A DNA stretch of 64,000 bases from Candidatus Jorgensenbacteria bacterium. Lineage in GTDB: Bacteria > Patescibacteriota > Minisyncoccia > UBA6257 > GWB1-50-10. Shown piece after piece: positions 242 to 41,837 of the stretch; positions within the stretch are counted from its first letter, which is position 1; each line of letters starts with the position of its first letter. Made by a program: the position numbers and the translations under genes. The notes beneath the pieces were generated by a model. That model ran no database searches. It had not been told where the DNA came from and was given only the letters and a program-made list of their open reading frames with translations. Location of the stretch: contig JAUSHK010000005.1 in the NCBI GenBank assembly GCA_030648515.1, positions 48,383 to 112,382 of the forward strand, read 5' to 3'.

Positions 242-323
242 AGGTATGTTTTGTTTGTTTTATTTTATGCGCATCGACTCCTTGCGCATATCAGAACAAT
301 AAATACTGCACGCAATCCACTTA

Positions 324-647
324 CTATCTTGGGATCGCAAGGGCAAGGGACGCGAGAACTGCGACGGTAATAATAAGCAGAGCCGCTGCTGTATATATTG
401 CAAGTTTTAGCCCCTCTTTTTTCTTGCCGTCTAGATACCACATAATCGGCCGCGCAAAGACGAGAAGCCCGGTGATTGTCGCCGAAGCCACAAAAAGCAG
501 AAGAAAGCTGATGGGCCCGAACATGCTTTTATCCGCCACTGTTCCTAAAAGCGGGCCTACGTTAGTCATGAAAAACGCGACAAGTACGACATAGAGCGAG
601 GTTGCTACGGCATGCAAAACTGCGTACGAGATAATTTTCTTGTTCAT
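324..647 (-). CDS. Hypothetical integral membrane protein (3-4 predicted TM helices)
   Basis: 107-aa ORF, strongly hydrophobic. No recognisable motif. Confidence 0.45.
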   Translation of the reverse strand: MNKKIISYAVLHAVATSLYVVLVAFFMTNVGPLLGTVADKSMFGPISFLLLFVASATITGLLVFARPIMWYLDGKKKEGLKLAIYTAAALLIITVAVLASLALAIPR

Positions 648-4829: not shown

Positions 4830-5879
4830 TTATACGGTCTGAACTGGCCCGCCTTGATTTGTGCGGTTCAATTTGCGCGAGCGCTGGTACGCTTCAATCT
4901 CACTTAATTTAAGCGCTGTTGTGGTGTTTCCTGTGCGCACATAGAAGTGTTCGTCATTGTCTGTTTTTAAATATACCGGCATTCTACTTTTAAGCGTCTG
5001 GACGACGCAGAGGTTTGTTTGCCCAGCGCTCGGAAACCATAGTTTCACAAGGTGGCGGAACTCCGGTCCGATCATGACGTTAAATACTTGCGTGAAATGA
5101 TTCTCAAATCCGTCGCTGTTCTGATGCTGGAGTGTTTGGTAATCATTCATAAGCCCAATCGGTTCCCGCGCGTTGTTTACGCCTATCACAAGCTCGCCGC
5201 CGTGCGAGTTCAAAAACGCGGCAACCGTTTTCATTGCCGCTTTTTCTAAATCGCGGTTCATTTTGCCGCTATGGTGGTCAAAACGAAGAGATGATTTGAA
5301 TTCAAGGTGCTCGTGCTCTTCAGTTCCAAGAAGTTTCTGCACGTCGGGCGCGGTAAAGCTGTCCCGTTCCGGGTTTATGCATTCTTCTATCGTCTCCACG
5401 AGTTCATCCGGCCGCGAAACATCTGCGATGACAAATGCCGTACCGGAAGAATCGTCTTTAATGCGAATTGAGCCATAATGAAACAGTTTCCCTGGTAGAT
5501 TAGAAGAAACGGTTGCCGTCATGGATTTTTTGAGTGAAACCGCAGTATTCTTTTTCAAGAAGACGCCGCGCTGATGCGAAATAATCCCAGGGCCCGCGGA
5601 ATATGACTCAAAATACCAGCGCGCGAACGCGTAGATAGTAACAAAAAGCTGTACGCCAGCAAGAAATATGAGCTTCGCAATGCTGTATGGAAGCACGCCG
5701 GAAAAGAAGAACGACTGCGTGTAGAGGTCGTATTTGTAGCTGCCGCCGCCGAGGACGAGGAGATATGCGATGAATATAAGAAGCTCTATCCCGATAAACG
5801 TTCGGACGAGAATAAATGGGCTTTTTTTGATTGTTACTACAGTATCGCCCAAACTCTTCATGTATCTAGTGTAAAACAA
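4830..5879 (-). CDS. Membrane protein with N-terminal bPH_2-like (YdbT-like) membrane domain and C-terminal AlbA_2 (Schlafen-type putative nucleic-acid-binding) domain
   Basis: Two TM helices, then a PH-like segment (SYSAGPGIISHQRGVFLKK...HYGSIRI). The C-terminal region EHEHLEFKSSL...MKTVAAFLNSHGGELVIGVNN...HFYVRTGNTTTALKLSEIEAY matches the AlbA_2 signature (E..LEFK ... AFaN..GG.l.iGv). Confidence 0.5.
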   Translation of the reverse strand: MFYTRYMKSLGDTVVTIKKSPFILVRTFIGIELLIFIAYLLVLGGGSYKYDLYTQSFFFSGVLPYSIAKLIFLAGVQLFVTIYAFARWYFESYSAGPGIISHQRGVFLKKNTAVSLKKSMTATVSSNLPGKLFHYGSIRIKDDSSGTAFVIADVSRPDELVETIEECINPERDSFTAPDVQKLLGTEEHEHLEFKSSLRFDHHSGKMNRDLEKAAMKTVAAFLNSHGGELVIGVNNAREPIGLMNDYQTLQHQNSDGFENHFTQVFNVMIGPEFRHLVKLWFPSAGQTNLCVVQTLKSRMPVYLKTDNDEHFYVRTGNTTTALKLSEIEAYQRSRKLNRTNQGGPVQTV

Positions 5880-5962
5880 AATTTAATTGGAGCAAAGGAA
5901 GATGCGACTTCTTCTTTGTGAACGAAGCTTTATTGCAAAAAGGCTAATTTTGATTTTTATGA

Positions 5963-6697
5963 TTAGTTTTGTAAGTCTTGTTGATGCGTCTTGGTTTCTG
6001 GTGTTTGAAGATTAATAATTTCTTTGTTGTTAGAATTTTTTTGCTCTATCTGTTGTTGTTTGATTTTAGTTTTATCTTCTGCTCTTTTTGAAAATAATGA
6101 CGACAAATCTTTGTTATGCAGCCATTCTTGGGGCGCTGGTATTATTTGATTTTTAAAACTCTCAGTAGTTTTATCTTCTAATGTCTGAATCATCATTCCA
6201 ATAATCATTAAAAAATTACCTCTTGGATTAATCATTTCCGACACTATGCGCCCCCTAGATCCTTCCGGAAATAAATTTCTACCTTTCTTGTATACTTCTG
6301 ATACGCTCTGAGAAGACGAGACTAGACTTTCTAGAAAATCTTTTATTCTTCCGGTATTAAAACTTGAGCCATAAACATTATGCGCAAAGTCATTTCTCAT
6401 TTTTCTTATTATGTTAAAATTTTGTGTAAATTTTGCACTTATTAAGCCAAGTCTAAATGCTAACTGAATCTTCGAATTAAATGTTGACACTGGCGCGTTA
6501 TTTTGATCAAATAGTTCATCCTCACTAGTCGTCGTAGGAGCCAAGTGAGATTTCAAGAGGGTGGTTAAAGTATTTTCTAATAATGATACCGATAATATAG
6601 CAGCAGCACGATCTGTTTCTTTTGAAAATTCATTTATAAGAAAGTCCCCTTTTTCCCACGTTGTTTCATGTGAAGATTGGTTATTTGCGTTTTCCAT
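5963..6697 (-). CDS. HEPN-superfamily protein, MtlR/Abi-like (Rx4H motif RNDFAH) with Q/K/N-rich low-complexity C-terminal tail
   Basis: Segment FNSKIQLAFRLGLISAKFTQNFNIIRKMRNDFAHN carries the HEPN Rx4-6H signature. The gene sits in a strongly AT-rich stretch (5880-6760), unlike its flanks. Confidence 0.5.
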   Translation of the reverse strand: MENANNQSSHETTWEKGDFLINEFSKETDRAAAILSVSLLENTLTTLLKSHLAPTTTSEDELFDQNNAPVSTFNSKIQLAFRLGLISAKFTQNFNIIRKMRNDFAHNVYGSSFNTGRIKDFLESLVSSSQSVSEVYKKGRNLFPEGSRGRIVSEMINPRGNFLMIIGMMIQTLEDKTTESFKNQIIPAPQEWLHNKDLSSLFSKRAEDKTKIKQQQIEQKNSNNKEIINLQTPETKTHQQDLQN

Positions 6698-16901: not shown

Positions 16902-17588
16902 CTATACTGCCTGAGAAACCGGCTCTTCTTCCAAAAGTGCCAAAAGATCTTTCGCTTCGGCTATTTTGCTTTTTATATCTATTTCCGGGAATTTCTCCCT
17001 CGCCCATTCGGTGGCGAATTTTAAGTTGCCAAGGAACAAGTCTTGCATTTTTAGAATTTCGCACGGAGTCTTTCCCCATTCGGCGGCGAGACCTAAAACC
17101 ACTTGTTGTAACCACACAGGATCAAGCACTTGGCTCAAATCCGCGTCACGGATAATTTTGAGCGTTAGGCCCAACTGATCGGATGGAGTTTGGTAGGGAA
17201 ATTCAGTGGCCATGATAATCTCTATGATTTTAGGAAGCTCCTCAATATCTTCGTCCATAATATGCTCTTTTAGCGCTACGATTGCCCTCTCTATATTCAC
17301 TGAATCCGGGCCCGATTTACCCGTGTGATTAAAATCGTGGAACATTGCCGCAATAAAAATATTTCGGACTTCTCTCTTTGATAATGTCCCGTAGAAAATA
17401 CACGCTTGATAGCATAACCACAAAACGTGAAGCATGTGCCTCCCGTTGTGATATGGATTAAGAAGATTCCGTGCGTCGTAAAAAATTGCTCGGAAATAAG
17501 GTCTTAAGTCGCCCTCGAAGAGAAGTGCATCGTTTCTGATTATTCCAGCAATTCCTCCGCGAACTTTTGATTCTTGTTCCATATACAA
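16902..17588 (-). CDS. HD-domain metal-dependent phosphohydrolase
   Basis: H...HD signature (YHNGRHMLHV ... FHDFNH ... RDADL). 228 aa. Confidence 0.7.
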   Translation of the reverse strand: MYMEQESKVRGGIAGIIRNDALLFEGDLRPYFRAIFYDARNLLNPYHNGRHMLHVLWLCYQACIFYGTLSKREVRNIFIAAMFHDFNHTGKSGPDSVNIERAIVALKEHIMDEDIEELPKIIEIIMATEFPYQTPSDQLGLTLKIIRDADLSQVLDPVWLQQVVLGLAAEWGKTPCEILKMQDLFLGNLKFATEWAREKFPEIDIKSKIAEAKDLLALLEEEPVSQAV

Positions 17589-20196: not shown

Positions 20197-20278
20197 TGTG
20201 TTATGGTAATCCAGTTAGCCAACAATCAAAAGCCCCGTCGGAGAGGCGGGACTTAGTGCGTCTAGTAAATTTTTACTA

Positions 20279-20596
20279 TTACGATGTAACCTTGTTAAGA
20301 AAATCAATGCTTGATTGCTTAAAGTCGGAAATTTCTTTTGCAACCATACCGTCAAAGTTCGGGATCTTTGACCGAAGAAACGTTATAATTGCTTCTGGAT
20401 TTTCCGTTTCCTTGCCAAGAATGGCGTCAAATGCGTCTTTATCTTCATCAGAAAGACTATCAAGGGCTTTTACAATAATCCGCTGATTGATAATTTCACC
20501 TATTTTTAAGAGCGTATCAGCCTGCTGATCCGCTGGTAGGGCATCTAACCCGAGTTCTTTTATTATGTTTTTAGACAGCGCGTCTTGTTGTGTCAT
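20279..20596 (-). CDS. Small hypothetical protein (conserved-looking acidic helical protein, DUF-type)
   Basis: 105-aa ORF directly downstream of the giant protein on the same strand. Confidence 0.4.
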   Translation of the reverse strand: MTQQDALSKNIIKELGLDALPADQQADTLLKIGEIINQRIIVKALDSLSDEDKDAFDAILGKETENPEAIITFLRSKIPNFDGMVAKEISDFKQSSIDFLNKVTS

Positions 20597-20615
20597 GTAT
20601 CTATTATATCATTAT

Positions 20616-23600
20616 CTACTGCTTGAGTTGTGCGACCTTTTTAAAGAACTCATCGATCGTCATTTGTTGAGCTTTTATACCAGAGGGAAGGTGCTTATCA
20701 ACATTTTTAATATTTTCTTTTATAAGATGCGCTATTTTTACGAATTTCGGATCAATCCCCTTACTTTCATACATTTTTACGACATCACTGACTTTTATTG
20801 TCGGCGCCATCGCGTCATATTGGTATCTCACTAGGCCCGTCTTCTTAATCATCTTTTCGTAAATCTCAGTTGCGTGCCAGTGGGCGGCCTTAAGCGCCTC
20901 AATTTTCCGCTCCAACACATCAACAATCTTTATTCTGTCCGGTGTGGGATTCCACCCATTTTGTTTCATGTGTTTAAGATATTCACGAAACCTTGAAATG
21001 TCGTCGCTAAACACTTCATAACCAGACAATACCCTTTCTTGAGCCGCGAGCGAGCTTGTTTTAAAAGAATGTTCCGATTGGCGACTTAATGTTCCAATAG
21101 CTTTTTTGAAAATTTTTTCGTGGTCGTAAATCCACTCCTCCGATGGCAACGGCGGTTTTCCAATTACATAATCTGGGGCATTTGGATGAATTATTGCCTT
21201 TGGTATGCTGGGATTTTCTTTTAGCGATTCCATGAATTTTTCAACATTGCCATGCAGGCCTTGTTCAGGTATTGGCTCATCGCTTTCCATACCACCACTA
21301 ACATTGCGGACAGGTTCTGGCGGTGTCTCAATTTTTTGTTTCCATTCGTATGTTTTTGATTTAACATCCTCAATTCCAAGCTTCACCTTGTATTCATTAA
21401 GGTACACCTTCGCCCCAGGATGAGTCCTTACTTGTACAGTTCCGTCGGGCGACATGTATTTTTGGCTAATCAGTTCTTTCGTGGTGAATTTATCTATTAT
21501 TGCATCCACTTTTGCCTTATTACTAAGCTCTTCAGGACTTAAACCATATTTTTTGAAATCTCCATGCTCAATTTGATCTCTGATTTGCCGCGCTATAGCT
21601 TTCCATGGGCTGTTTTGTCCCTTACCAATGGTCGCAAGCTCTTCAATTCGACTCCTTTCTGCTGATGGGTCGCTTTCTGGCGCCACTTCCTTGCCTGTTG
21701 TTTCTTCAGGTTTTATTTGTGCCTTAGGGGCTTGATCATTGACTGGGCTTTCAGGATTTTGGCTCTTTAATCCAATTTGTTGATCCGTTTTATCAGTGGT
21801 GCTAATGTCCGGTTCTTTTTCTGTTCCGACAGACACCGGTTCACTTTGAGTGGGTTGGTCCTGATCAATAATTTTTGGCCTTACCACAGCTTCGCCATCT
21901 ATTTCAGTACCTGGCTTTGCGCCACCAACATTCTCACTGACAGCGCCACTCCCTTCCCCAGCCGCAGGAACCTCCTTTTCTATGCTATGAAAAGAAACTC
22001 CTGAGCTGTCCATACCAAGCGCATTTTCAAGCATTCCGGAACCTAAGAATGACGCGCCTCCACCGATGGCCACGGAAGCTAAAAGCTTTCCGATATTTAG
22101 CCATCTTTGCTTCCATTTTGCGGTAGATGTTATCTTTTCAATTTTATCGTGTAATTCATACATTTCTTCAATAAAGTCTGGAATCTCAGAAGATGGGCCG
22201 GATTTCTCGTTTTCAAATTCTAATGAACTTTCCTCATCAAGGTCTTCTTCGTTTTTTTCTTGGTTAGAGGTTATTTCATAAAGCTTTGCGATTTTTTCTT
22301 CTTTTCCTCTTTCTATTGATTCCACCCATTTTTTGACGCCCAATTTATCAAATCCCTTAGAAACCATCGGGATGAGTGAACCGCCGATAACGGAGCGAAT
22401 AAGCCTGATCTTGAAAACCGTTCCGACGCCCGCAGTAATTGCCCATGAAGCGCCGAAAAAGCCAGCTATTGCGCTTGCGCTTACCATAACCCCCGTACCG
22501 ATACCGGCAGCAATAATCCACTTTATTGGCGGTTTTAATTTACTATATCTTTCAAATGCTTTTCCTAGTATGCCCCTATCTTTTGAAGATTCACTTTCCA
22601 GCTTTTTAAGCATTACTTCCTCATCAACGAACCTTTGAGAAATTTCCGCTCTCACATATTTTTCCTCGCTGCCCTTGCTAATTTCTTCACGGTAAAGTTT
22701 TCTTGCTGCATTTACTTGTCCGAATTCGTATTCTGTTTTTGCAACATTCATCGCCTCTTTAAGTTTTTCCCCTTCATTTGTTTTTTTGTCTTTTCGCGGC
22801 AGATTATTCCATTCTTTGTAAAGTTTTAGATACGTGTTTCGCTTTTCGGTGATTTGGTCTAACTCAATTTTTTCTTCCGGCGCCATTTTTTCTACTGACG
22901 TTTCTTCTTTTTTCGGCTCGGATGTCGTAGAAACTCCTGCCTTAGACTGTTCTAATTCTGATTTTTCTTTTTCCCATTCCCTCATCGAGCTAAATGGAAG
23001 ATTTTCTTCTTCTCCGGGTGTTACTGGTTGAGATTCTGGTATATTTTCAATTTGTTTTTTTAAAAACGTCGGGATATCTAACTCTGGAAGATCTCCAGTA
23101 AAATAATCTCCGGCTTGTTTTGTTTCTTGTAATCCGGTTCCAGTAACGTCTTGTAAAACTTCTTGTCCTGTCCCTTCTGGTTTAATTTCCGGCGAAACGC
23201 TTTCGCTTTTTTCTGATTGCCCAACAACACTATTTTTCAATTCGGTTCTTACTGGATTATCTCCATGAAAAGGCGTTCTTTCGTTATCCGCATAATTAGC
23301 CACTCTTGCGATGAGGCCACGTTCAATTACCATTTTGGTTCCCCAGTCAATTTTCGCCGGCTTTAGAATTTCATAGAGTCCCTCTCCCTCTCCTTGTCGC
23401 GGTTTCTCCGTTATAAACTGAAATGCCATTTCCAGTACAATATCAAGAGCCATGTCTGGTTTTCGATTCAATATTGAAGGTTTAACAAATAAACCATTCC
23501 CCTGAATATAGAAGTAGTCGGCGTTTTCCTCGGGAACCAGTTTACCCTTCTCTATTTTAACGCCAATCCTTCCGGTTTCGGGTGAGCTATTTTTTTCTTC

Positions 23601-23759
23601 GCTAATAAAAGGCGCCTCCTCAGAGGTTCGCGGAACTTTTAGCTCAACCTTACTCATCGCATTATTAATAGCTTTGGCTTCCGGCGACGGCTCGCCTTTT
23701 ACCAAAACCTTTTTCCATTGAGGGCCCCCTTCGTGAGACAATAGATTTATATGGAGCAT
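20616..23759 (-). CDS. Giant (1047 aa) acidic low-complexity protein with two internal hydrophobic helical hairpins; no recognisable catalytic domain
   Basis: Uninterrupted 3.1-kb ORF; E/K/S/P-rich. Hydrophobic segments near residues 410-460 (IIAAGIGTGVMVSASAIAGFFGASWAITAGVG) and 555-585 (LLASVAIGGGASFLGSGML). Confidence 0.6.
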   Translation of the reverse strand: MLHINLLSHEGGPQWKKVLVKGEPSPEAKAINNAMSKVELKVPRTSEEAPFISEEKNSSPETGRIGVKIEKGKLVPEENADYFYIQGNGLFVKPSILNRKPDMALDIVLEMAFQFITEKPRQGEGEGLYEILKPAKIDWGTKMVIERGLIARVANYADNERTPFHGDNPVRTELKNSVVGQSEKSESVSPEIKPEGTGQEVLQDVTGTGLQETKQAGDYFTGDLPELDIPTFLKKQIENIPESQPVTPGEEENLPFSSMREWEKEKSELEQSKAGVSTTSEPKKEETSVEKMAPEEKIELDQITEKRNTYLKLYKEWNNLPRKDKKTNEGEKLKEAMNVAKTEYEFGQVNAARKLYREEISKGSEEKYVRAEISQRFVDEEVMLKKLESESSKDRGILGKAFERYSKLKPPIKWIIAAGIGTGVMVSASAIAGFFGASWAITAGVGTVFKIRLIRSVIGGSLIPMVSKGFDKLGVKKWVESIERGKEEKIAKLYEITSNQEKNEEDLDEESSLEFENEKSGPSSEIPDFIEEMYELHDKIEKITSTAKWKQRWLNIGKLLASVAIGGGASFLGSGMLENALGMDSSGVSFHSIEKEVPAAGEGSGAVSENVGGAKPGTEIDGEAVVRPKIIDQDQPTQSEPVSVGTEKEPDISTTDKTDQQIGLKSQNPESPVNDQAPKAQIKPEETTGKEVAPESDPSAERSRIEELATIGKGQNSPWKAIARQIRDQIEHGDFKKYGLSPEELSNKAKVDAIIDKFTTKELISQKYMSPDGTVQVRTHPGAKVYLNEYKVKLGIEDVKSKTYEWKQKIETPPEPVRNVSGGMESDEPIPEQGLHGNVEKFMESLKENPSIPKAIIHPNAPDYVIGKPPLPSEEWIYDHEKIFKKAIGTLSRQSEHSFKTSSLAAQERVLSGYEVFSDDISRFREYLKHMKQNGWNPTPDRIKIVDVLERKIEALKAAHWHATEIYEKMIKKTGLVRYQYDAMAPTIKVSDVVKMYESKGIDPKFVKIAHLIKENIKNVDKHLPSGIKAQQMTIDEFFKKVAQLKQ

Positions 23760-23915
23760 TTCTTAATGTAAAATATAATAAGCCACCTTTTTGATTATTG
23801 TAGCAAACTACGTTAGTAAGCTCTGTGCATATCTTTGAGCGTGATACCAGAATCGGACTGGCGCCACTGCCTACCAGCAGGCAGGTCGACCTTGGTCACG
23901 CCAAATTTTTTTACT

Positions 23916-23989
23916 TGGAGCGGGTAACGGGAGTCGGACCCGTGTCTCAACCTTGGGAAGGTTGCATAATACCGTTATACAATACCCGC
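23916..23989 (-). tRNA. tRNA-Gly (anticodon CCC), CCA encoded
   Basis: Hand-folded: perfect 7-bp acceptor GCGGGTA/TACCCGC; anticodon stem CAACC/GGTTG with loop TTCCCAA; T stem ACGGG/CCCGT with G53-C61. D stem is only 3 bp plus a mismatch, and the T loop reads TCCGACT (C at position 55). Confidence 0.5.
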
Positions 23990-24028: not shown

Positions 24029-24340
24029 TTATTGCGTACTCGTGGCTTTTGAACTTGCGGTCGTTGTCGCGGTTTTTGTTTCAGGGACAACAATAATTAG
24101 TTTCTCGCCGGAATTTACCAGGTTCTGCTGTTTTTTTACTTCTTTCAGGCGATTTTCCGGATTGTTGAAATACTCAATATCCGAGGCTGTCGTGTCCTTT
24201 TTGTGCTGAAGCTTTTCGAATTTCGCCCGAAGATCGGCAACTTCCGCATCAAGCGCTTTACGCTGACCGTGGAGATTATAAATGCCGAACCCGAGAAGGG
24301 CAATAACCGCGAGTAATGCGACGGAGCGCCACGAAATCAT
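24029..24340 (-). CDS. Septum formation initiator family protein (FtsB/DivIC-like)
   Basis: N-terminal TM, coiled coil, then the conserved ...ENRLKEVKKQQNLVNSGEKLIIV C-terminal motif. 103 aa. Confidence 0.55.
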   Translation of the reverse strand: MISWRSVALLAVIALLGFGIYNLHGQRKALDAEVADLRAKFEKLQHKKDTTASDIEYFNNPENRLKEVKKQQNLVNSGEKLIIVVPETKTATTTASSKATSTQ

Positions 24341-24353
24341 AGTTCAATAAATA

Positions 24354-24605
24354 TTATGCAACCTGGTGGTGTGTATAAAACCGTTCCGCAAATGTTTTTC
24401 CAAACACAATGAGCCACGCGGTAAGCGCGATATGGAGAAACATGAGAATGTACCGCGCGTTGTAGAGCGAGCTTGCAATATCAATGCTATATGAAACGGC
24501 GGCGTACACAAAAACGAGCTCAATGATGCACTGAATTAGCACGAACGTGAGCGCCGTTAAAAAAATCGCCCAGTAATGATGTTTTTCCATGACGCGCTTT
24601 GCCAC
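24354..24605 (-). CDS. Small hypothetical membrane protein (2 TM)
   Basis: 83-aa hydrophobic ORF between lepA and the ftsB-like gene. Confidence 0.4.
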   Translation of the reverse strand: MAKRVMEKHHYWAIFLTALTFVLIQCIIELVFVYAAVSYSIDIASSLYNARYILMFLHIALTAWLIVFGKTFAERFYTHHQVA

Positions 24606-24617
24606 GCGTTCAGTATA

Positions 24618-26438
24618 TCATTTTTTCAGGAGTTCTTTGAATGTCTCTGGCGCGATATGAACCTCGGCGCGGGCGTTTAGGCGTTTTTTCCCGCGCTGCT
24701 GCTTTTTCCACAGCTTCATTTTGCGCGTGCGGTCTCCGCCATAGAGATAATCAGTGACGTCTTTTCGTAATGCGGCTATATCATCGCGCGCGATAATCCT
24801 TCCGTCCGCCTGTGCCTGTATCGGCTGGTTGAACTGCTGGCGCGGAAGAAGTTTTTTGAGCTTTGCGACCATTGCGCGCGCCTCGCGCTCAACTGAATCG
24901 CGCGGAAAAAATCTGCTCAGCCCAGGAAGTATCTCGTGCGAGACCAAAATATCAGTGCGCACCACATCCGCTTTTTCATAGCCCACAAGCTCGTAGCTGA
25001 ACGATGCAAGGCCGTGCGTTGCCGATTTCAATTGGTCGTCAAAATCGCTTACGAGCTCGGCGAGCGGCATTTTTGTGGAAAACTGCAGACGGTCGCCGAT
25101 TGTTTCCGTCGTGACGCCTGACATTCTAAATGTTTTTTGAAGCGCCATAATATCCGAGAGATTTTCCTGCGGCAAAATAATGTCTATCGCGATAATCGGC
25201 TCTAAAATTTCCTCATATTCGGCCGGCAGGTCTTCGGGTTTTACAATCTCTTTCCATCCTGACGGTGTTTTAATTTTGTAGAGCACCGACGGAAACGTGT
25301 TTACCGTTTCCACGTGAAACTCGCGGCGCAAACGCTCCGATGTAATTTCAAAATGAAGGCGCCCTAAAAATCCCACCTTAAATCCCCTGCCGAGAACTTC
25401 GTTTTGATCCGGCTCAATTAATAGCGCGGAATCGTTTAAGTGAAGCTTCTCAAGCCCGTGCTCTAAAAGCTCGTACTCGTCGCTTTCGCTAGGATAGAAC
25501 GAGACGAAAACAACTGGGCTCGGCTCTTTGTATCCGGGCAATGGCTTTACTAATGAAACTTGCTTTTGGTTTCCCGCGCCGACTTGTACTAACGTGTCGC
25601 CGATTTTAATTTTTTCAGGATCGCGCACGCCTGTCGCAACATAGCCGAACTCGCCCGTTCCGATTACCGCGCCTTTCGCAAGCAACCGAAGTTCTGGAGC
25701 AAAATAACCAATCTCTTTTATTTTTGAGCGCGTTTGCGTCGCAATCAAAAAAATATCATCTTCCGAGTTTATTACACCGTCAAAAACGCGAACTGAGGCA
25801 ACAACGCCTTTGTGGTCATCATAGAACGAGTCAAAAACTAGCGCGCGCGCGTGAGAAACATCGCTAGCCTCTGTCTGTCGCGGAGGCGGAACAAGCTCTA
25901 TTACTTTTTTAAGCAATTCTTCCGCGCCCTTGCCGGTTTTCCCCGACACAAAAAGAATTTCTTCTTGTTTCACGCTAATAAGCTTCGCGAGCCCGTCCAC
26001 AACAGAGCGCAGGCGCGGATCATTTTTATCTTCAAATAAATCAACTTTGTTAACTGCGCCGATTACCGTAAGTCCAGCGGCTTTTGCCAAACGAAAATTT
26101 GCGAGCGTTTGCGCTTGAATTCCCTGTGTGGCATCAACTAAAAGAATTGCGCCTTCAACAGCGTGCAGTGAACGCGAAACTTCATATGAGAAATCGGAAT
26201 GGCCTGGCGTGTCTATAAGGTTCAAAAGATACTCCGTGCCGCCAATTGCATAGCGCATTCGAACCGGCGCCATCTTAATAGTGATGCCGCGCTCGCGTTC
26301 CAAGTCAAGCTGGTCCAAAAATTGCGCTTTCATTTTGCGTTTATCAACCGTGCCGGTTATTTCAAGAAACCGGTCGGCAAGCGTGCTTTTGCCGTGGTCA
26401 ATGTGCGCGATGATTACGAAGTTGCGTATATTCTGCAT
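24618..26438 (-). CDS. lepA: Translation elongation factor 4
   Basis: N-terminal GTPase motifs AHIDHGKST, DTPGH, NKVD; LepA-specific C-terminal region. 606 aa. Confidence 0.9.
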   Translation of the reverse strand: MQNIRNFVIIAHIDHGKSTLADRFLEITGTVDKRKMKAQFLDQLDLERERGITIKMAPVRMRYAIGGTEYLLNLIDTPGHSDFSYEVSRSLHAVEGAILLVDATQGIQAQTLANFRLAKAAGLTVIGAVNKVDLFEDKNDPRLRSVVDGLAKLISVKQEEILFVSGKTGKGAEELLKKVIELVPPPRQTEASDVSHARALVFDSFYDDHKGVVASVRVFDGVINSEDDIFLIATQTRSKIKEIGYFAPELRLLAKGAVIGTGEFGYVATGVRDPEKIKIGDTLVQVGAGNQKQVSLVKPLPGYKEPSPVVFVSFYPSESDEYELLEHGLEKLHLNDSALLIEPDQNEVLGRGFKVGFLGRLHFEITSERLRREFHVETVNTFPSVLYKIKTPSGWKEIVKPEDLPAEYEEILEPIIAIDIILPQENLSDIMALQKTFRMSGVTTETIGDRLQFSTKMPLAELVSDFDDQLKSATHGLASFSYELVGYEKADVVRTDILVSHEILPGLSRFFPRDSVEREARAMVAKLKKLLPRQQFNQPIQAQADGRIIARDDIAALRKDVTDYLYGGDRTRKMKLWKKQQRGKKRLNARAEVHIAPETFKELLKK

Positions 26439-27174: not shown

Positions 27175-29292
27175 CTAGGGGCGACTTACTTCTAACAGGG
27201 CAAGCGTGAGTTTTATTATCGTCCTTCCTTCGGGATTTTTATCTTCGTATGTAAAAACAGTATTTCCTGTTTCTTGCCATACATATCCAAGCGGAGCGGA
27301 AATTGTCGCCTGAAATTCATTTTCCACACCAGACTGCTTTTCAAATATAAACTCAAATATGTTTCCAGGCGCGACCACGGCAGAATCAGACTGCGTGGTT
27401 TGATACCGCAACTCAAGGTCTTTTGACTCGCCCGCCAATACTGTGAACCACGTTGCGAAAACGTTTTTGCCGTCCTCAATCATACTCCAAACTTTATGTT
27501 CCGTGAGATATTTCTCCGTTTCTTCAATCGCAAGAAGATCGGGGTTGTGCTTGTAACCGCCTGTTTCGTAATCAAACGAGCTTACCGAGTTCCGATCTAT
27601 ATTCCCCTTCGCGTTCAAAAGCATCGTCTCGGGATTCGTAAAAATCTTGATGTAATCCTGATTCGGCGATTTCCACCACGAATCGGTTTGCGTATCGCCA
27701 GAGTGCGCGCGGGTTACCGTGAGATTCGTGAGCGCGCTGCCGTCGGTGCCGATATCAATCGCCGCGCGCACTGTTTCTTTTACAAACGCGTCGCTTTTCC
27801 CGCCAGCGATGTTTGTATTCACAACAGCGAGGTAACTTCCCCAGAAACTGCTCGGCAACTCATACACCGCACCGCTTAGTCCAGACGAAGCGATGAAACT
27901 TTGGATTTTATCGTCTTTCGCGTACACCATAATGTCTTTTTTCGCGAAGTGCTCCTCAAAACGCGTGAGAAGCGCCTTTTGTTCCGTTTGCGTGAGCGCG
28001 CCCAGGCGTTCAAAGAGAATTGGCGCGAGAATTTTTAAAATCCGCTTCGGGTGCCCTGCTTTATTATCCTTCCCCGCCTCTACCTCACGCTGGATTTCGT
28101 GCAGAAAGTTTTCGCTATCAATAGTTAGCTTATATTCATCAAGCGGAATGGAGCCTGTAACGTCTAGAAGCGTTTCAAGCACGTTAATGTTAATTGCGAC
28201 AGCCGCGTCAAATTTTATACCGCGTTCCTCATACATTTTTGACGACTCAAGAAAACCAAGAACTGTTTTCGCGGACGTCGGGAAATCAAAGAACCAGTTT
28301 GCGTCGCGCGCTTCCCAATCGGTTGTCGTTTTCTGAAGCGGTTTAGGCGGGATAATTTTTGAGAACACCCAGCCGTCGGGGTCGTAAATATCGCGCACAT
28401 CAAGCGAGACCATCTGCCCGCCACGGACCGTTATATCTGCGTAGCTTCCCAAGAAACCTCCGCCTGGTCGTATCTCCGCCGGATTCTGAAACAAGATAGC
28501 AACGTGCGTATCAGTGTCGCGTTTTAAGAGTGCAAGCAAATTATTTAAAAATTCTTCGGCGCCATAGAGCGCCGCGCTGTGCGCTATGTATTGGTTGCCG
28601 ATAAGGCTGTCAATGCCGTCAAAAAGAGAGGCGGTCTGTTTGAGGCTCGCGGTCGTATTTTTAATATCTTGCGTTTTTGCTAGAATCGCGCTGATTGCGT
28701 CGCGCGCTTCCCCGAGACGCGCAAGAAGCGTTGCTCCGTCGCTTTCAAAATATTTGAAGCCGTTTTGTTTTGCGTCCGCGATGATTTGCGAGATTTTAAG
28801 AAGTTCTATATTTAATCCAGTGATTCCCCCAATGAGAGAACCCGAACTTTTGAAAGCCGGGACGACCCACCCCAATGCGGCTGTGAGCGTTTTTCCGCGC
28901 CCATTTTCCAAGAGCGCATCAAGCGTTGCGAGATCCTTGTTATTTTGGGTAAGGCTTTGCTGCGCGGCTTCCGGGTCAAGATTGCTTAACGCCTCAACTG
29001 ATTTTTGAAAATTACCCGATATAGCGGAGCTTGAATTTTTAATTACGTCGCGCGTTTGAACGGCTGTCTTCGCGACAAAAACAAAAAGAATTCCGACCAT
29101 AATAAAGGAGAACGCGCCGATGATTTTTGCCACAGCACCGCTCGTGTTGCGCTTTGGCGCCTGCGGGATGCGGGCAAGGTCAAGCGACGGCGTGCGCATA
29201 ATGCGCTCATAGTTAAGGTCGGGATGCCGCACGTCAAAAAGAACCGGGTCAATGTTTTTCGCGGAAACTTTTCTCTTTATCGGGTGTTCCAT
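27175..29292 (-). CDS. Large membrane-anchored extracytoplasmic protein, DUF4012-like
   Basis: N-terminal TM (IIGAFSFIMVGILFVFVA). Segment LFQNPAEIRPGGGFLGSYADITVRGGQ resembles the DUF4012 signature. Sits at the head of a glycosyltransferase cluster. Confidence 0.5.
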   Translation of the reverse strand: MEHPIKRKVSAKNIDPVLFDVRHPDLNYERIMRTPSLDLARIPQAPKRNTSGAVAKIIGAFSFIMVGILFVFVAKTAVQTRDVIKNSSSAISGNFQKSVEALSNLDPEAAQQSLTQNNKDLATLDALLENGRGKTLTAALGWVVPAFKSSGSLIGGITGLNIELLKISQIIADAKQNGFKYFESDGATLLARLGEARDAISAILAKTQDIKNTTASLKQTASLFDGIDSLIGNQYIAHSAALYGAEEFLNNLLALLKRDTDTHVAILFQNPAEIRPGGGFLGSYADITVRGGQMVSLDVRDIYDPDGWVFSKIIPPKPLQKTTTDWEARDANWFFDFPTSAKTVLGFLESSKMYEERGIKFDAAVAININVLETLLDVTGSIPLDEYKLTIDSENFLHEIQREVEAGKDNKAGHPKRILKILAPILFERLGALTQTEQKALLTRFEEHFAKKDIMVYAKDDKIQSFIASSGLSGAVYELPSSFWGSYLAVVNTNIAGGKSDAFVKETVRAAIDIGTDGSALTNLTVTRAHSGDTQTDSWWKSPNQDYIKIFTNPETMLLNAKGNIDRNSVSSFDYETGGYKHNPDLLAIEETEKYLTEHKVWSMIEDGKNVFATWFTVLAGESKDLELRYQTTQSDSAVVAPGNIFEFIFEKQSGVENEFQATISAPLGYVWQETGNTVFTYEDKNPEGRTIIKLTLALLEVSRP

Positions 29293-41609: not shown

Positions 41610-41686
41610 TGGTGGACCCGGGGAGATTTGGACTCCCGACCTCCTCATTGCAAATGAGGCGCTCTACCAGGCTAAGCTACGGGCCC
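41610..41686 (-). tRNA. tRNA-Ala (anticodon TGC), CCA encoded
   Basis: Hand-folded: acceptor GGGCCCG/CGGGTCC with the G3-U70 wobble that is the alanine identity element. 9-nt D loop. Anticodon stem CCTCA/TGAGG with loop TTTGCAA. T stem GGGAG/CTCCC; T loop TCCAAAT has C at position 55. Confidence 0.6.
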
Positions 41687-41765
41687 TAACACCAATTGAG
41701 GATAAATTAAAATTCCCTTTCTGTGAAGACCTCGATTGGTGTGGGAACAGGCCCTCTTTTATATG

Positions 41766-41837
41766 TGGGTGTGGAAGGAATCGAACCTTCGACTTCTGTC
41801 TTATCAGGACAGCGTTCTACCACTGAACTACACACCC
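41766..41837 (-). tRNA. tRNA-Ile (anticodon GAT)
   Basis: Hand-folded canonical cloverleaf: GGGTGTG/CACACCC acceptor, D loop AGTGGTA, anticodon loop CTGATAA, T loop TTCGATT, discriminator A. No encoded CCA. Confidence 0.75.

Follow-up and report, generated by a model that had tools for sequence, protein, structure and literature searches.

RsgI-type anti-sigma factors carry a Pro-rich stalk after a single transmembrane (TM) span, cytoskeletal scaffolds such as EzrA are all-helical, and the chlamydial Inc proteins, which are type III secretion substrates placed in host-derived membrane, contain a bilobed hydrophobic domain. Patescibacteria (also the candidate phyla radiation, CPR) account for a big share of bacterial diversity, and much of their envelope biology resides in unannotated families. 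A survey listed 20 Parcubacteria-enriched families, mainly hypothetical, 12 of which are predicted to be membrane proteins (Meheust et al. 2019, PMC6744442). Here we analyze two adjacent genes in a 64,000-nucleotide (nt) stretch, the window, of a Candidatus Jorgensenbacteria metagenome-assembled genome (MAG; contig JAUSHK010000005.1, assembly GCA_030648515.1). The first encodes a membrane protein of 1,047 amino acids (aa), the large protein; the second encodes a 105-aa protein that its sequence assigns to the uncharacterized family DUF5663 (PF18908). A first-pass annotation had noted both genes and missed the DUF5663 association. No other feature of the locus is as strong or as informative as the pairing of DUF5663 with the conserved core of the large protein, which we name the M module.

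A metagenome scan was seeded with the DUF5663 alignment and returned 21 further loci. All open reading frames (ORFs) of all loci were scanned with hidden Markov models (HMMs) for the M module, for DUF5663 and for C1, a conserved C-terminal domain of the large protein. Wherever the flank of an M-module ORF could be read, DUF5663 adjoins that ORF (17/17 loci). It lies 3–85 nt downstream in the window and at loci L002, L008-L013, L017, L021-L024, L033 and L035, of which L009 and L010 derive from the Hainich datasets. At L036, an extra 99-aa ORF (5653-5952), which is not DUF5663 by HMM, is inserted between the two genes, and at L016 the order is reversed, with the M-module ORF immediately downstream of DUF5663. 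The pair persists at loci without a C1 HMM match (L012, L016, L017, L021, L022, L024 and L033), whereas P0016, the protein of locus L034, contains C1 and gives no M-module match; within the 180 nt of sequence that remain downstream of it, a convergent gene takes the place of DUF5663. DUF5663 is thus coupled to the M module and not to C1. The two genes differ in evolutionary rate: at the same loci, identity to the window copy is 42–75% for the partner versus 19–28% for the large protein, so the partner evolves about twice as slowly.

The assignment of the small protein is based on a match of 22.8 bits to PF18908.5 (gathering threshold 23.7), in which residues 11-94 cover profile positions 1-82 of 84; the match thus spans nearly the full profile in a stand-alone protein of ~100 aa. 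In the protein database, the entry carries a PF18908.7 match and the NCBI name 'DUF5663 domain-containing protein'. Because its score is at or just below the gathering threshold, we regard it as a divergent branch of the family. Relatives were found at 56–75% identity, and 11/11 aligned partners match DUF5663 (best E=4e-6) and no other family in a Pfam scan. The isoelectric point (pI) is 4.15–5.3 in 11/11 sequences. The window copy has a net charge of -7 and no hydrophobic segment (maximum hydropathy 0.66) and is predicted to be cytoplasmic. The first-pass description of a small acidic gene downstream on the same strand was accurate except for the spacer, which measures 19 nt and not 20. A search of the accessible literature for DUF5663 or PF18908 found no mention, and the adjacent, faster-evolving membrane partner gives the family its first functional context. 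At L018 (139-1143), two DUF5663 genes are arranged in tandem.

The large gene and the DUF5663 gene make up a self-contained pair that is specific to Patescibacteria and probably co-transcribed. A terminator-like hairpin with a T-run, 32 nt past the DUF5663 stop codon, is the likely end of the two-gene transcript. It is weak evidence, because the number of terminator-like sites in the region is not above shuffle expectation.

The large gene is the longest ORF of the window and single-copy in it, and the antisense ORFs that overlap the pair are all short. Its product is deposited, on a contig of 278 kb, as 'MAG: hypothetical protein Q7R98_02675 [Candidatus Jorgensenbacteria bacterium]' (exact self-match). 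The uninterrupted 3.1-kb ORF described at first pass was confirmed, although the term 'giant' overstates a protein of 117 kDa, which is large. Relatives were reached through the contigs of DUF5663 relatives, where the gene upstream is a large-protein homolog, and through exhaustive phmmer comparison with 1.84 billion representatives, which found 24 proteins at E<=1e-3, most of them 600–1150 aa long. All recovered source names are Jorgensenbacteria, Parcubacteria or Patescibacteria. The proposed lineage specificity is therefore borne out, and homologs with a conserved core module do exist in other Patescibacteria. The L002 homolog is colinear from residue 224 to residue 1044 (26% identity, E=4e-59, >800 columns), and the L001 homolog aligns over the C-terminal 350 aa with 29% identity. 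An apparent orphan ORF thereby becomes a defined family with named modules.

An M-module HMM built from an 11-member seed that includes the window protein matches the window ORF with E=9.5e-77 and independent metagenome ORFs with E values of 1e-19 to 1e-41. The large protein contains the elements of the module in the family order: the helical bundle, a PPKEK-like motif, a Gly/Ala-rich first hydrophobic region (H1), a charged loop and a Gly/Ala-rich second one (H2). The HMMs probably capture only part of the family, because two mutually homologous ORFs (E=6e-44) at L031 (4416-6983, 855 aa) and L032 (270-2726, 818 aa) escape the M and C1 HMMs and yet show, by eye, a weak M-like juxtamembrane motif and a C1-like 'GKGYEYMMKRxWE...DGTSVRI'. 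The DUF5663 genes downstream of these ORFs are the most divergent (26–27% identity). The C-terminal modules are swapped between lineages, and divergence is fast. At L024, a second M-module ORF (5231-6568) is located 2.3 kb downstream. P0014 (401 aa, ~59-aa tandem repeats PPLSSKLF.IH.GH...) gave six matches to the Pro-rich stretch at residues 833-880; these probably reflect composition or chance, not kinship. A contig scan with the C-terminal 349 aa produced a single Thermoplasmatota match (34% identity over 65 aa), which was rejected as spurious.

The large protein has a modular architecture (Table 1), defined by domain-level comparison across the family and by two AlphaFold2 (AF2) models. It had previously been called acidic and low in complexity. 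Glu (12.0%), Lys (11.1%), Ser (7.7%) and Pro (5.9%) are frequent, and the protein is indeed acidic, but only mildly, because its net charge of -21 corresponds to a pI of 5.6. Compositional bias does exist but is restricted to residues ~250-300, 500-530 and 600-700. A search for tandem repeats found none in the large protein, and the AF2 models contain ordered domains at 294-390, 700-789 and 870-1047, with disorder mainly at residues 790-794, 800-841 and 845-868. As the bias is confined to short stretches and tandem repeats are absent, the protein is modular rather than generally of low complexity, and a repeat-built low-complexity ORF is ruled out.

Table 1 Features of the gene pair and modules of the large protein; residues refer to the large protein and positions to the window.
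Feature	Residues	Position	Strand	Description	Basis
Large gene		20616..23759	(-)	1047 aa + stop, 117 kDa	ORF list
Variable N-terminal region	1-291	22887..23759	(-)	Predicted cytoplasmic	No N-terminal hydrophobic segment
Small domain	60-150	23310-23582	(-)	Matches P0027 only (43% identity)	Exhaustive phmmer
M module (conserved core)	294-582			Three-helix bundle, basic motif, H1, charged loop, H2, in that order	
Three-helix bundle	294-390	22590..22880	(-)	Predicted cytoplasmic part of M module	AF2 and conserved columns
Juxtamembrane motif and H1	391-466	22362..22589	(-)	Basic motif, then Gly/Ala-rich H1 (412-466) with amphipathic R/K-bearing tail	
Charged loop	467-553	22101..22361	(-)	15 K/R, 23 D/E; predicted cytoplasmic	
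H2	554-577 (core 559-577)	22029..22100	(-)	Single Gly/Ala-rich TM span	Hydropathy
Stalk	578-696	21672..22028	(-)	Pro/Glu/Gly/Ser/Thr-rich, variable in length and sequence; predicted extracytoplasmic	
C1 domain	697-805	21345..21671	(-)	Most widely conserved ectodomain (predicted)	HMM matches and alignment
Second linker	806-868	21156..21344	(-)	Largely disordered	AF2 pLDDT <50 over 800-841, 845-868
C2 domain	869-1047	20619..21155	(-)	Helical bundle	AF2 and closest relatives
Small partner gene		20279..20596	(-)	105 aa, DUF5663 (PF18908), pI 4.45	ORF list and Pfam
Terminator-like hairpin and T-run		20232..20247	(-)	32 nt past DUF5663 stop codon	Consensus scan and sequence

An N-terminal hydrophobic segment is absent from the window protein and its relatives, which have no signal peptide, and among family members the stretch ahead of H1 varies in length between 16 and 549 aa. 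The small domain within this region corresponds to the C-terminal part of P0027, a 198-aa protein in which RLKK comes after an N-terminal TM helix, and the match suggests that residues 60-150 form a separately mobile cytoplasmic domain. The bundle that opens the M module consists of helices 294-318, 328-361 and 366-390 in AF2 model m18401434b7d7 (block predicted local distance difference test score, pLDDT, ~74-93), and its alignment shows conserved R/Y/Y/F/E/L columns. The juxtamembrane motif follows the family consensus PPKEKxIxRK...P...RW-x-IS and reads SKDRGILGKAFERYSKLKPPIKW in the window protein (family alignment). Beyond H2, the stalk of the window protein has low entropy and a negative net charge. 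The C1 consensus is ELATxxKGEGxWHAVxRQL...FGLxPEDL...LNxET...DGTExRIxxPGxKVxL, with invariant G/W/Q/T/L columns, and its AF2 block is confidently predicted (pLDDT about >=90 at 700-769, 82-83 at 770-789). C1 has no Pfam match among 25 members and no PDB sequence or fold match, and PDB profile searches with C1 and DUF5663 gave nothing significant. C2, whose AF2 model was built on a shallow alignment, is kept only in the closest relatives (L001, L002, L004, L007, and partly P0008 and P0010). For the large protein, nothing reached threshold in Pfam, NCBIfam, PHROGs, PADLOC or PDB sequences; the earlier statement that it has no catalytic motif agrees with the lack of any catalytic family in these resources.

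Two mid-protein hydrophobic regions recur, ~70-100 aa apart, in at least 13 members. The first-pass annotation interpreted both as membrane hairpins. Hydropathy supports this in part: H1 of the window protein is long enough for a hairpin, whereas H2, with ~19-24 aa, is a single span. We calculated the mean net charge of the 15-aa flanks in 17 members and obtained +3.2 before H1, +2.0 after H1, +2.5 before H2 and -0.9 after H2. K/R residues before H2 outnumber those after H2 in 16/17 members (Wilcoxon p=4e-4), the flank ahead of H2 containing 4-8 K/R per 20 aa. In the pooled 100 aa after H2, Pro (9.0 versus 5.0%) and Gly (10.2 versus 7.6%) are enriched and K+R are depleted. Given the conserved hydrophobic pair and this charge pattern, the large protein is very probably anchored in the membrane with large soluble parts on both sides, as had been proposed. 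Applying the positive-inside rule to the flank charges puts the N terminus in the cytoplasm, together with the charged loop and the two ends of H1; H2 would cross the membrane once, and the C-terminal ~470 aa would lie outside. With both of its ends placed in the cytoplasm, H1 would form a hairpin or a re-entrant segment.

The reading that best accommodates these features, which we put forward tentatively, is that of a trans-envelope tether or relay in which the M-module protein is coupled to a cytoplasmic DUF5663 adaptor. The M module would anchor the large protein in the cytoplasmic membrane: H1 would enter and leave the membrane at the cytoplasmic face, H2 would be a true TM helix, and the charged loop and the variable N-terminal ~290 aa would remain cytoplasmic. 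The Pro/Glu/Gly-rich stalk, C1, the second linker and the C-terminal helical bundle would be exposed outside. The acidic DUF5663 protein would act as the dedicated cytoplasmic partner. Because partners have a pI of 4.15-5.3 and the membrane flanks are strongly basic, DUF5663 probably docks on the basic juxtamembrane surfaces of the M module. The exchangeable, fast-evolving surface domains may bind an external ligand, either on the cell's own wall or on the surface of another cell, and the conserved core may physically couple them to the slowly evolving adaptor. That DUF5663 physically binds the M module, and that the pair functions as a tether or relay, is what we infer; the pair could be a host-attachment device, a signaling relay or a passive tether. 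That the pair represents an unrecognized trans-envelope coupling system across Parcubacteria, in which surface domains engage the wall or a partner cell and the core relays this to DUF5663, is possible but rather unlikely.

Several observations weigh against the proposed tether or relay. In most members, H1 has ~30 aa between two conserved arginines, which is short for a two-helix hairpin, and AF2 confidence is <50 across the membrane part including H1. The topology model depends on one empirical rule, the positive-inside rule. Neither C1 nor C2 shows a fold or sequence likeness to known ligand-binding domains. DUF5663 also occurs without a detectable M-module neighbor (L015, L025, L026 and L029), and at L031 and L032 it stands beside only a weak M-like motif. 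Finally, the large gene has a housekeeping neighborhood, which suits a core role in the cell no less than surface interaction.

Because of the ~30-aa H1 and the low AF2 confidence in the membrane part, a two-span topology stays a live rival. H1 and H2 would then each be one TM helix, the N- and C-terminal domains would both be cytoplasmic and the charged loop would face outward. The large protein would be a membrane-attached cytoplasmic scaffold, for example in division or envelope biogenesis, with DUF5663 as its cofactor; we judge this combination of topology and role unlikely. An H1 of ~30 aa suits one long helix better than two, AF2 gives a single helix at 410-432, and the all-helical domains are reminiscent of cytoskeletal scaffolds such as EzrA. 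LepA and DivIC are encoded directly upstream both in the window and at L034, the locus of a distant C1-containing relative; this LepA-DivIC-large gene order is a weak hint at envelope or division biology, but it is missing at the other loci where upstream genes were read (L008-L012, L035 and L036). A two-span topology would expose the segments that follow H1 and precede H2, the most basic of the flanks, on the outer face and keep the net-negative one that follows H2 in the cytoplasm; this contradicts the positive-inside rule in 16/17 members. The composition of the stalk is also typical of extracytoplasmic linkers.

A second alternative retains the outward C terminus of the tether or relay but makes DUF5663 the output regulator: the membrane protein would hold DUF5663 in the manner of an anti-sigma factor or anti-adaptor, and would release or alter it on an external cue. 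Variable outer and N-terminal domains around a conserved membrane and juxtamembrane core, combined with a slower small cytoplasmic partner, fit such sequestration, as does a Pro-rich stalk past a single TM span, a feature of RsgI-type anti-sigma factors. The small protein even gives one RskA_N match, but its E value of 0.18 is far below threshold. None of the 11 DUF5663 members contains a sigma-70, helix-turn-helix (HTH) or other regulator domain in the Pfam scan, and no anti-sigma domain was found in the large protein or its 24 relatives. No site-1/site-2 protease is consistently encoded nearby, an M50 gene being present at one locus only. We consider signaling by sequestration distinctly unlikely. 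Its specific form, an anti-sigma/extracytoplasmic function (ECF) sigma pair, was rejected, as there is no Sigma70_r2/r4 in the 11 partners, and neither the large protein nor any of the 24 relatives contains zf-HC2, RsgI_N or RskA_N.

Giant lineage-specific membrane proteins had been proposed at first pass as candidates for host-cell interaction, and a host-attachment adhesin, whose C-terminal domains would bind the host cell of an episymbiotic Jorgensenbacterium, was weighed as a third alternative. The predicted outward C terminus on a long stalk, the fast divergence with swapping of C-terminal modules, and the restriction of the family to Patescibacteria are in line with it. However, no Ig, FN3, lectin or beta-helix domain was detected, C1 is kept in lineages that have diverged from one another and presumably differ in host, and the episymbiosis of the source organism is itself unproven. 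The genomic setting argues in the same direction. At the loci read, the large gene resides in a housekeeping context rather than a variable island: its neighbors are LepA, DivIC, tRNA-Gly and Dus in the window, and they vary among other loci (DnaX, L10/L12, CtpB/Alr, M50/S12/S7/EF-G, FtsH). This neighborhood and the single copy in the window, as opposed to an expanded or island-borne family, favor a core cellular role over that of an accessory adhesin, which we regard as very unlikely.

That the long ORF is an artefact, either a frameshift fusion of shorter genes or a chance reading frame without coding function, can be set aside with near certainty: although a word-index homology search with the full protein and with the 25-sequence alignment returned the self-match alone and the ORF looked like an orphan at first, uninterrupted colinear homologs of 640-1153 aa with identical module order occur in many independent assemblies, the 24 phmmer representatives and the recurring hydrophobic pair refute both a chimera and an orphan ORF, even the N-terminal region has a homolog (P0027), and by our own estimate the probability that chance would yield 1047 consecutive codons without a stop at ~42% GC is ~1e-28.

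Two further identities were examined and rejected. A WXG100/type VII secretion system (T7SS) substrate was discarded because the 11-sequence DUF5663 alignment has no conserved Trp and gives no WXG100 Pfam match; no FtsK/SpoIIIE (EssC-type) gene was found at loci with called genes and Pfam families read. For a phage or defense origin, PHROGs and PADLOC returned sub-threshold noise only, and tblastn against 50,697 phage records gave no match.

Around the pair, the order LepA, DivIC/FtsB-like gene, large gene is seen at 24029-26438 (-) in the window and at 876-5886 of L034, and the window has an 83-aa hydrophobic ORF (24354-24605) between LepA and DivIC. A tRNA-Gly(CCC) gene (23916-23989, (-)) separates the DivIC-like gene from the large gene. 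The 156-nt spacer at 23760-23915 contains a long imperfect hairpin, the stability of which is not significant versus shuffled sequence (z=-1.6), and no promoter-like site was called on its minus strand. Farther away, adjacent tRNA-Ile(GAT) and tRNA-Ala(TGC) genes are located at 41610-41837 (-); the usual place of this tRNA pair is the 16S-23S spacer, and Rfam at gathering thresholds detected no rRNA in the window. A 228-aa ORF (16902-17588, (-)) has a match to 3'5'-cyclic nucleotide phosphodiesterase at 22.3 bits (gathering threshold 24.8) over 50 profile positions. A 705-aa ORF (27175-29292, (-)) contains a DUF4012 domain (E=1e-16), a family that is discussed among CPR-enriched families and was earlier proposed to be an envelope auxiliary protein (Meheust et al. 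2019, PMC6744442).

The significance of the pair depends on which role applies. If the pair links the surface to the cytoplasm, it offers a concrete target for studying how these ultra-small cells adhere to or perceive their environment. If the pair is a coupling system, CPR bacteria, whose reduced genomes encode few classical sensory systems, would possess a dedicated outside-to-inside link. If it is merely a structural envelope protein, the annotation is useful but ordinary.

To place the pair among known systems, we compared it with those that it most resembles. Like RsgI/RskA anti-sigma factors and their sigma factors, it places a membrane-protein gene next to one for a small cytoplasmic protein, with a TM span and Pro-rich linker, variable ectodomains and a more conserved partner. 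It differs in its partner, which lacks an HTH and is no sigma factor, and in the large protein, which is without an anti-sigma domain; conversely, the RsgI/RskA families do not have the extra hydrophobic hairpin and the three-helix bundle of the M module. A Foldseek search of the PDB with the M-module model found nothing at E<=1e-3, and its top matches were syntaxin/Sso Habc bundles. As in syntaxin/Sso1, an antiparallel three-helix bundle precedes a long helix that runs into the membrane, but the matches (E 0.6-3, probability 0.2-0.6) are not significant, there is no SNARE motif, the matched proteins are eukaryotic, and the large protein runs ~470 aa past the membrane.

By general analogy, chlamydial Inc proteins and reticulon-like hairpins share a hydrophobic stretch of 30-55 aa with both ends on one side and flanking soluble helical domains. 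Neither group is related in sequence to the large protein, which adds another true TM span and is encoded next to a small gene for a dedicated partner. C1 opens with '..T[IV]xKGEGxW..[IV]..' and closes with 'IxxPGxKVxL', motifs that bear a superficial likeness to LysM (PF01476). A LysM-like identity was nevertheless rejected, with no LysM match at E<=0.1 in 25 members and an hhalign probability of 5% against LysM sequences entered by hand. C1 does not have the compact ~45-aa beta-alpha-alpha-beta fold of LysM, and no LysM structure was among its fold matches.

The M-module family does fit the description of the Parcubacteria-enriched membrane families in the survey cited above, a text that does not contain the pairing or the module structure. 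The large-protein family, its modules and the M module–DUF5663 pairing are undescribed in the resources queried, although database entries for the sequences exist under hypothetical or DUF5663 names. On the genomic side the pattern is solid and testable; the function is inferred. Because Parcubacteria-enriched hypothetical membrane families are a recognized class (PMC6744442), we conclude that the pair is not a categorically new system: it belongs to a known general kind, in which a modular protein that spans the envelope is paired with a small partner in the cytoplasm.

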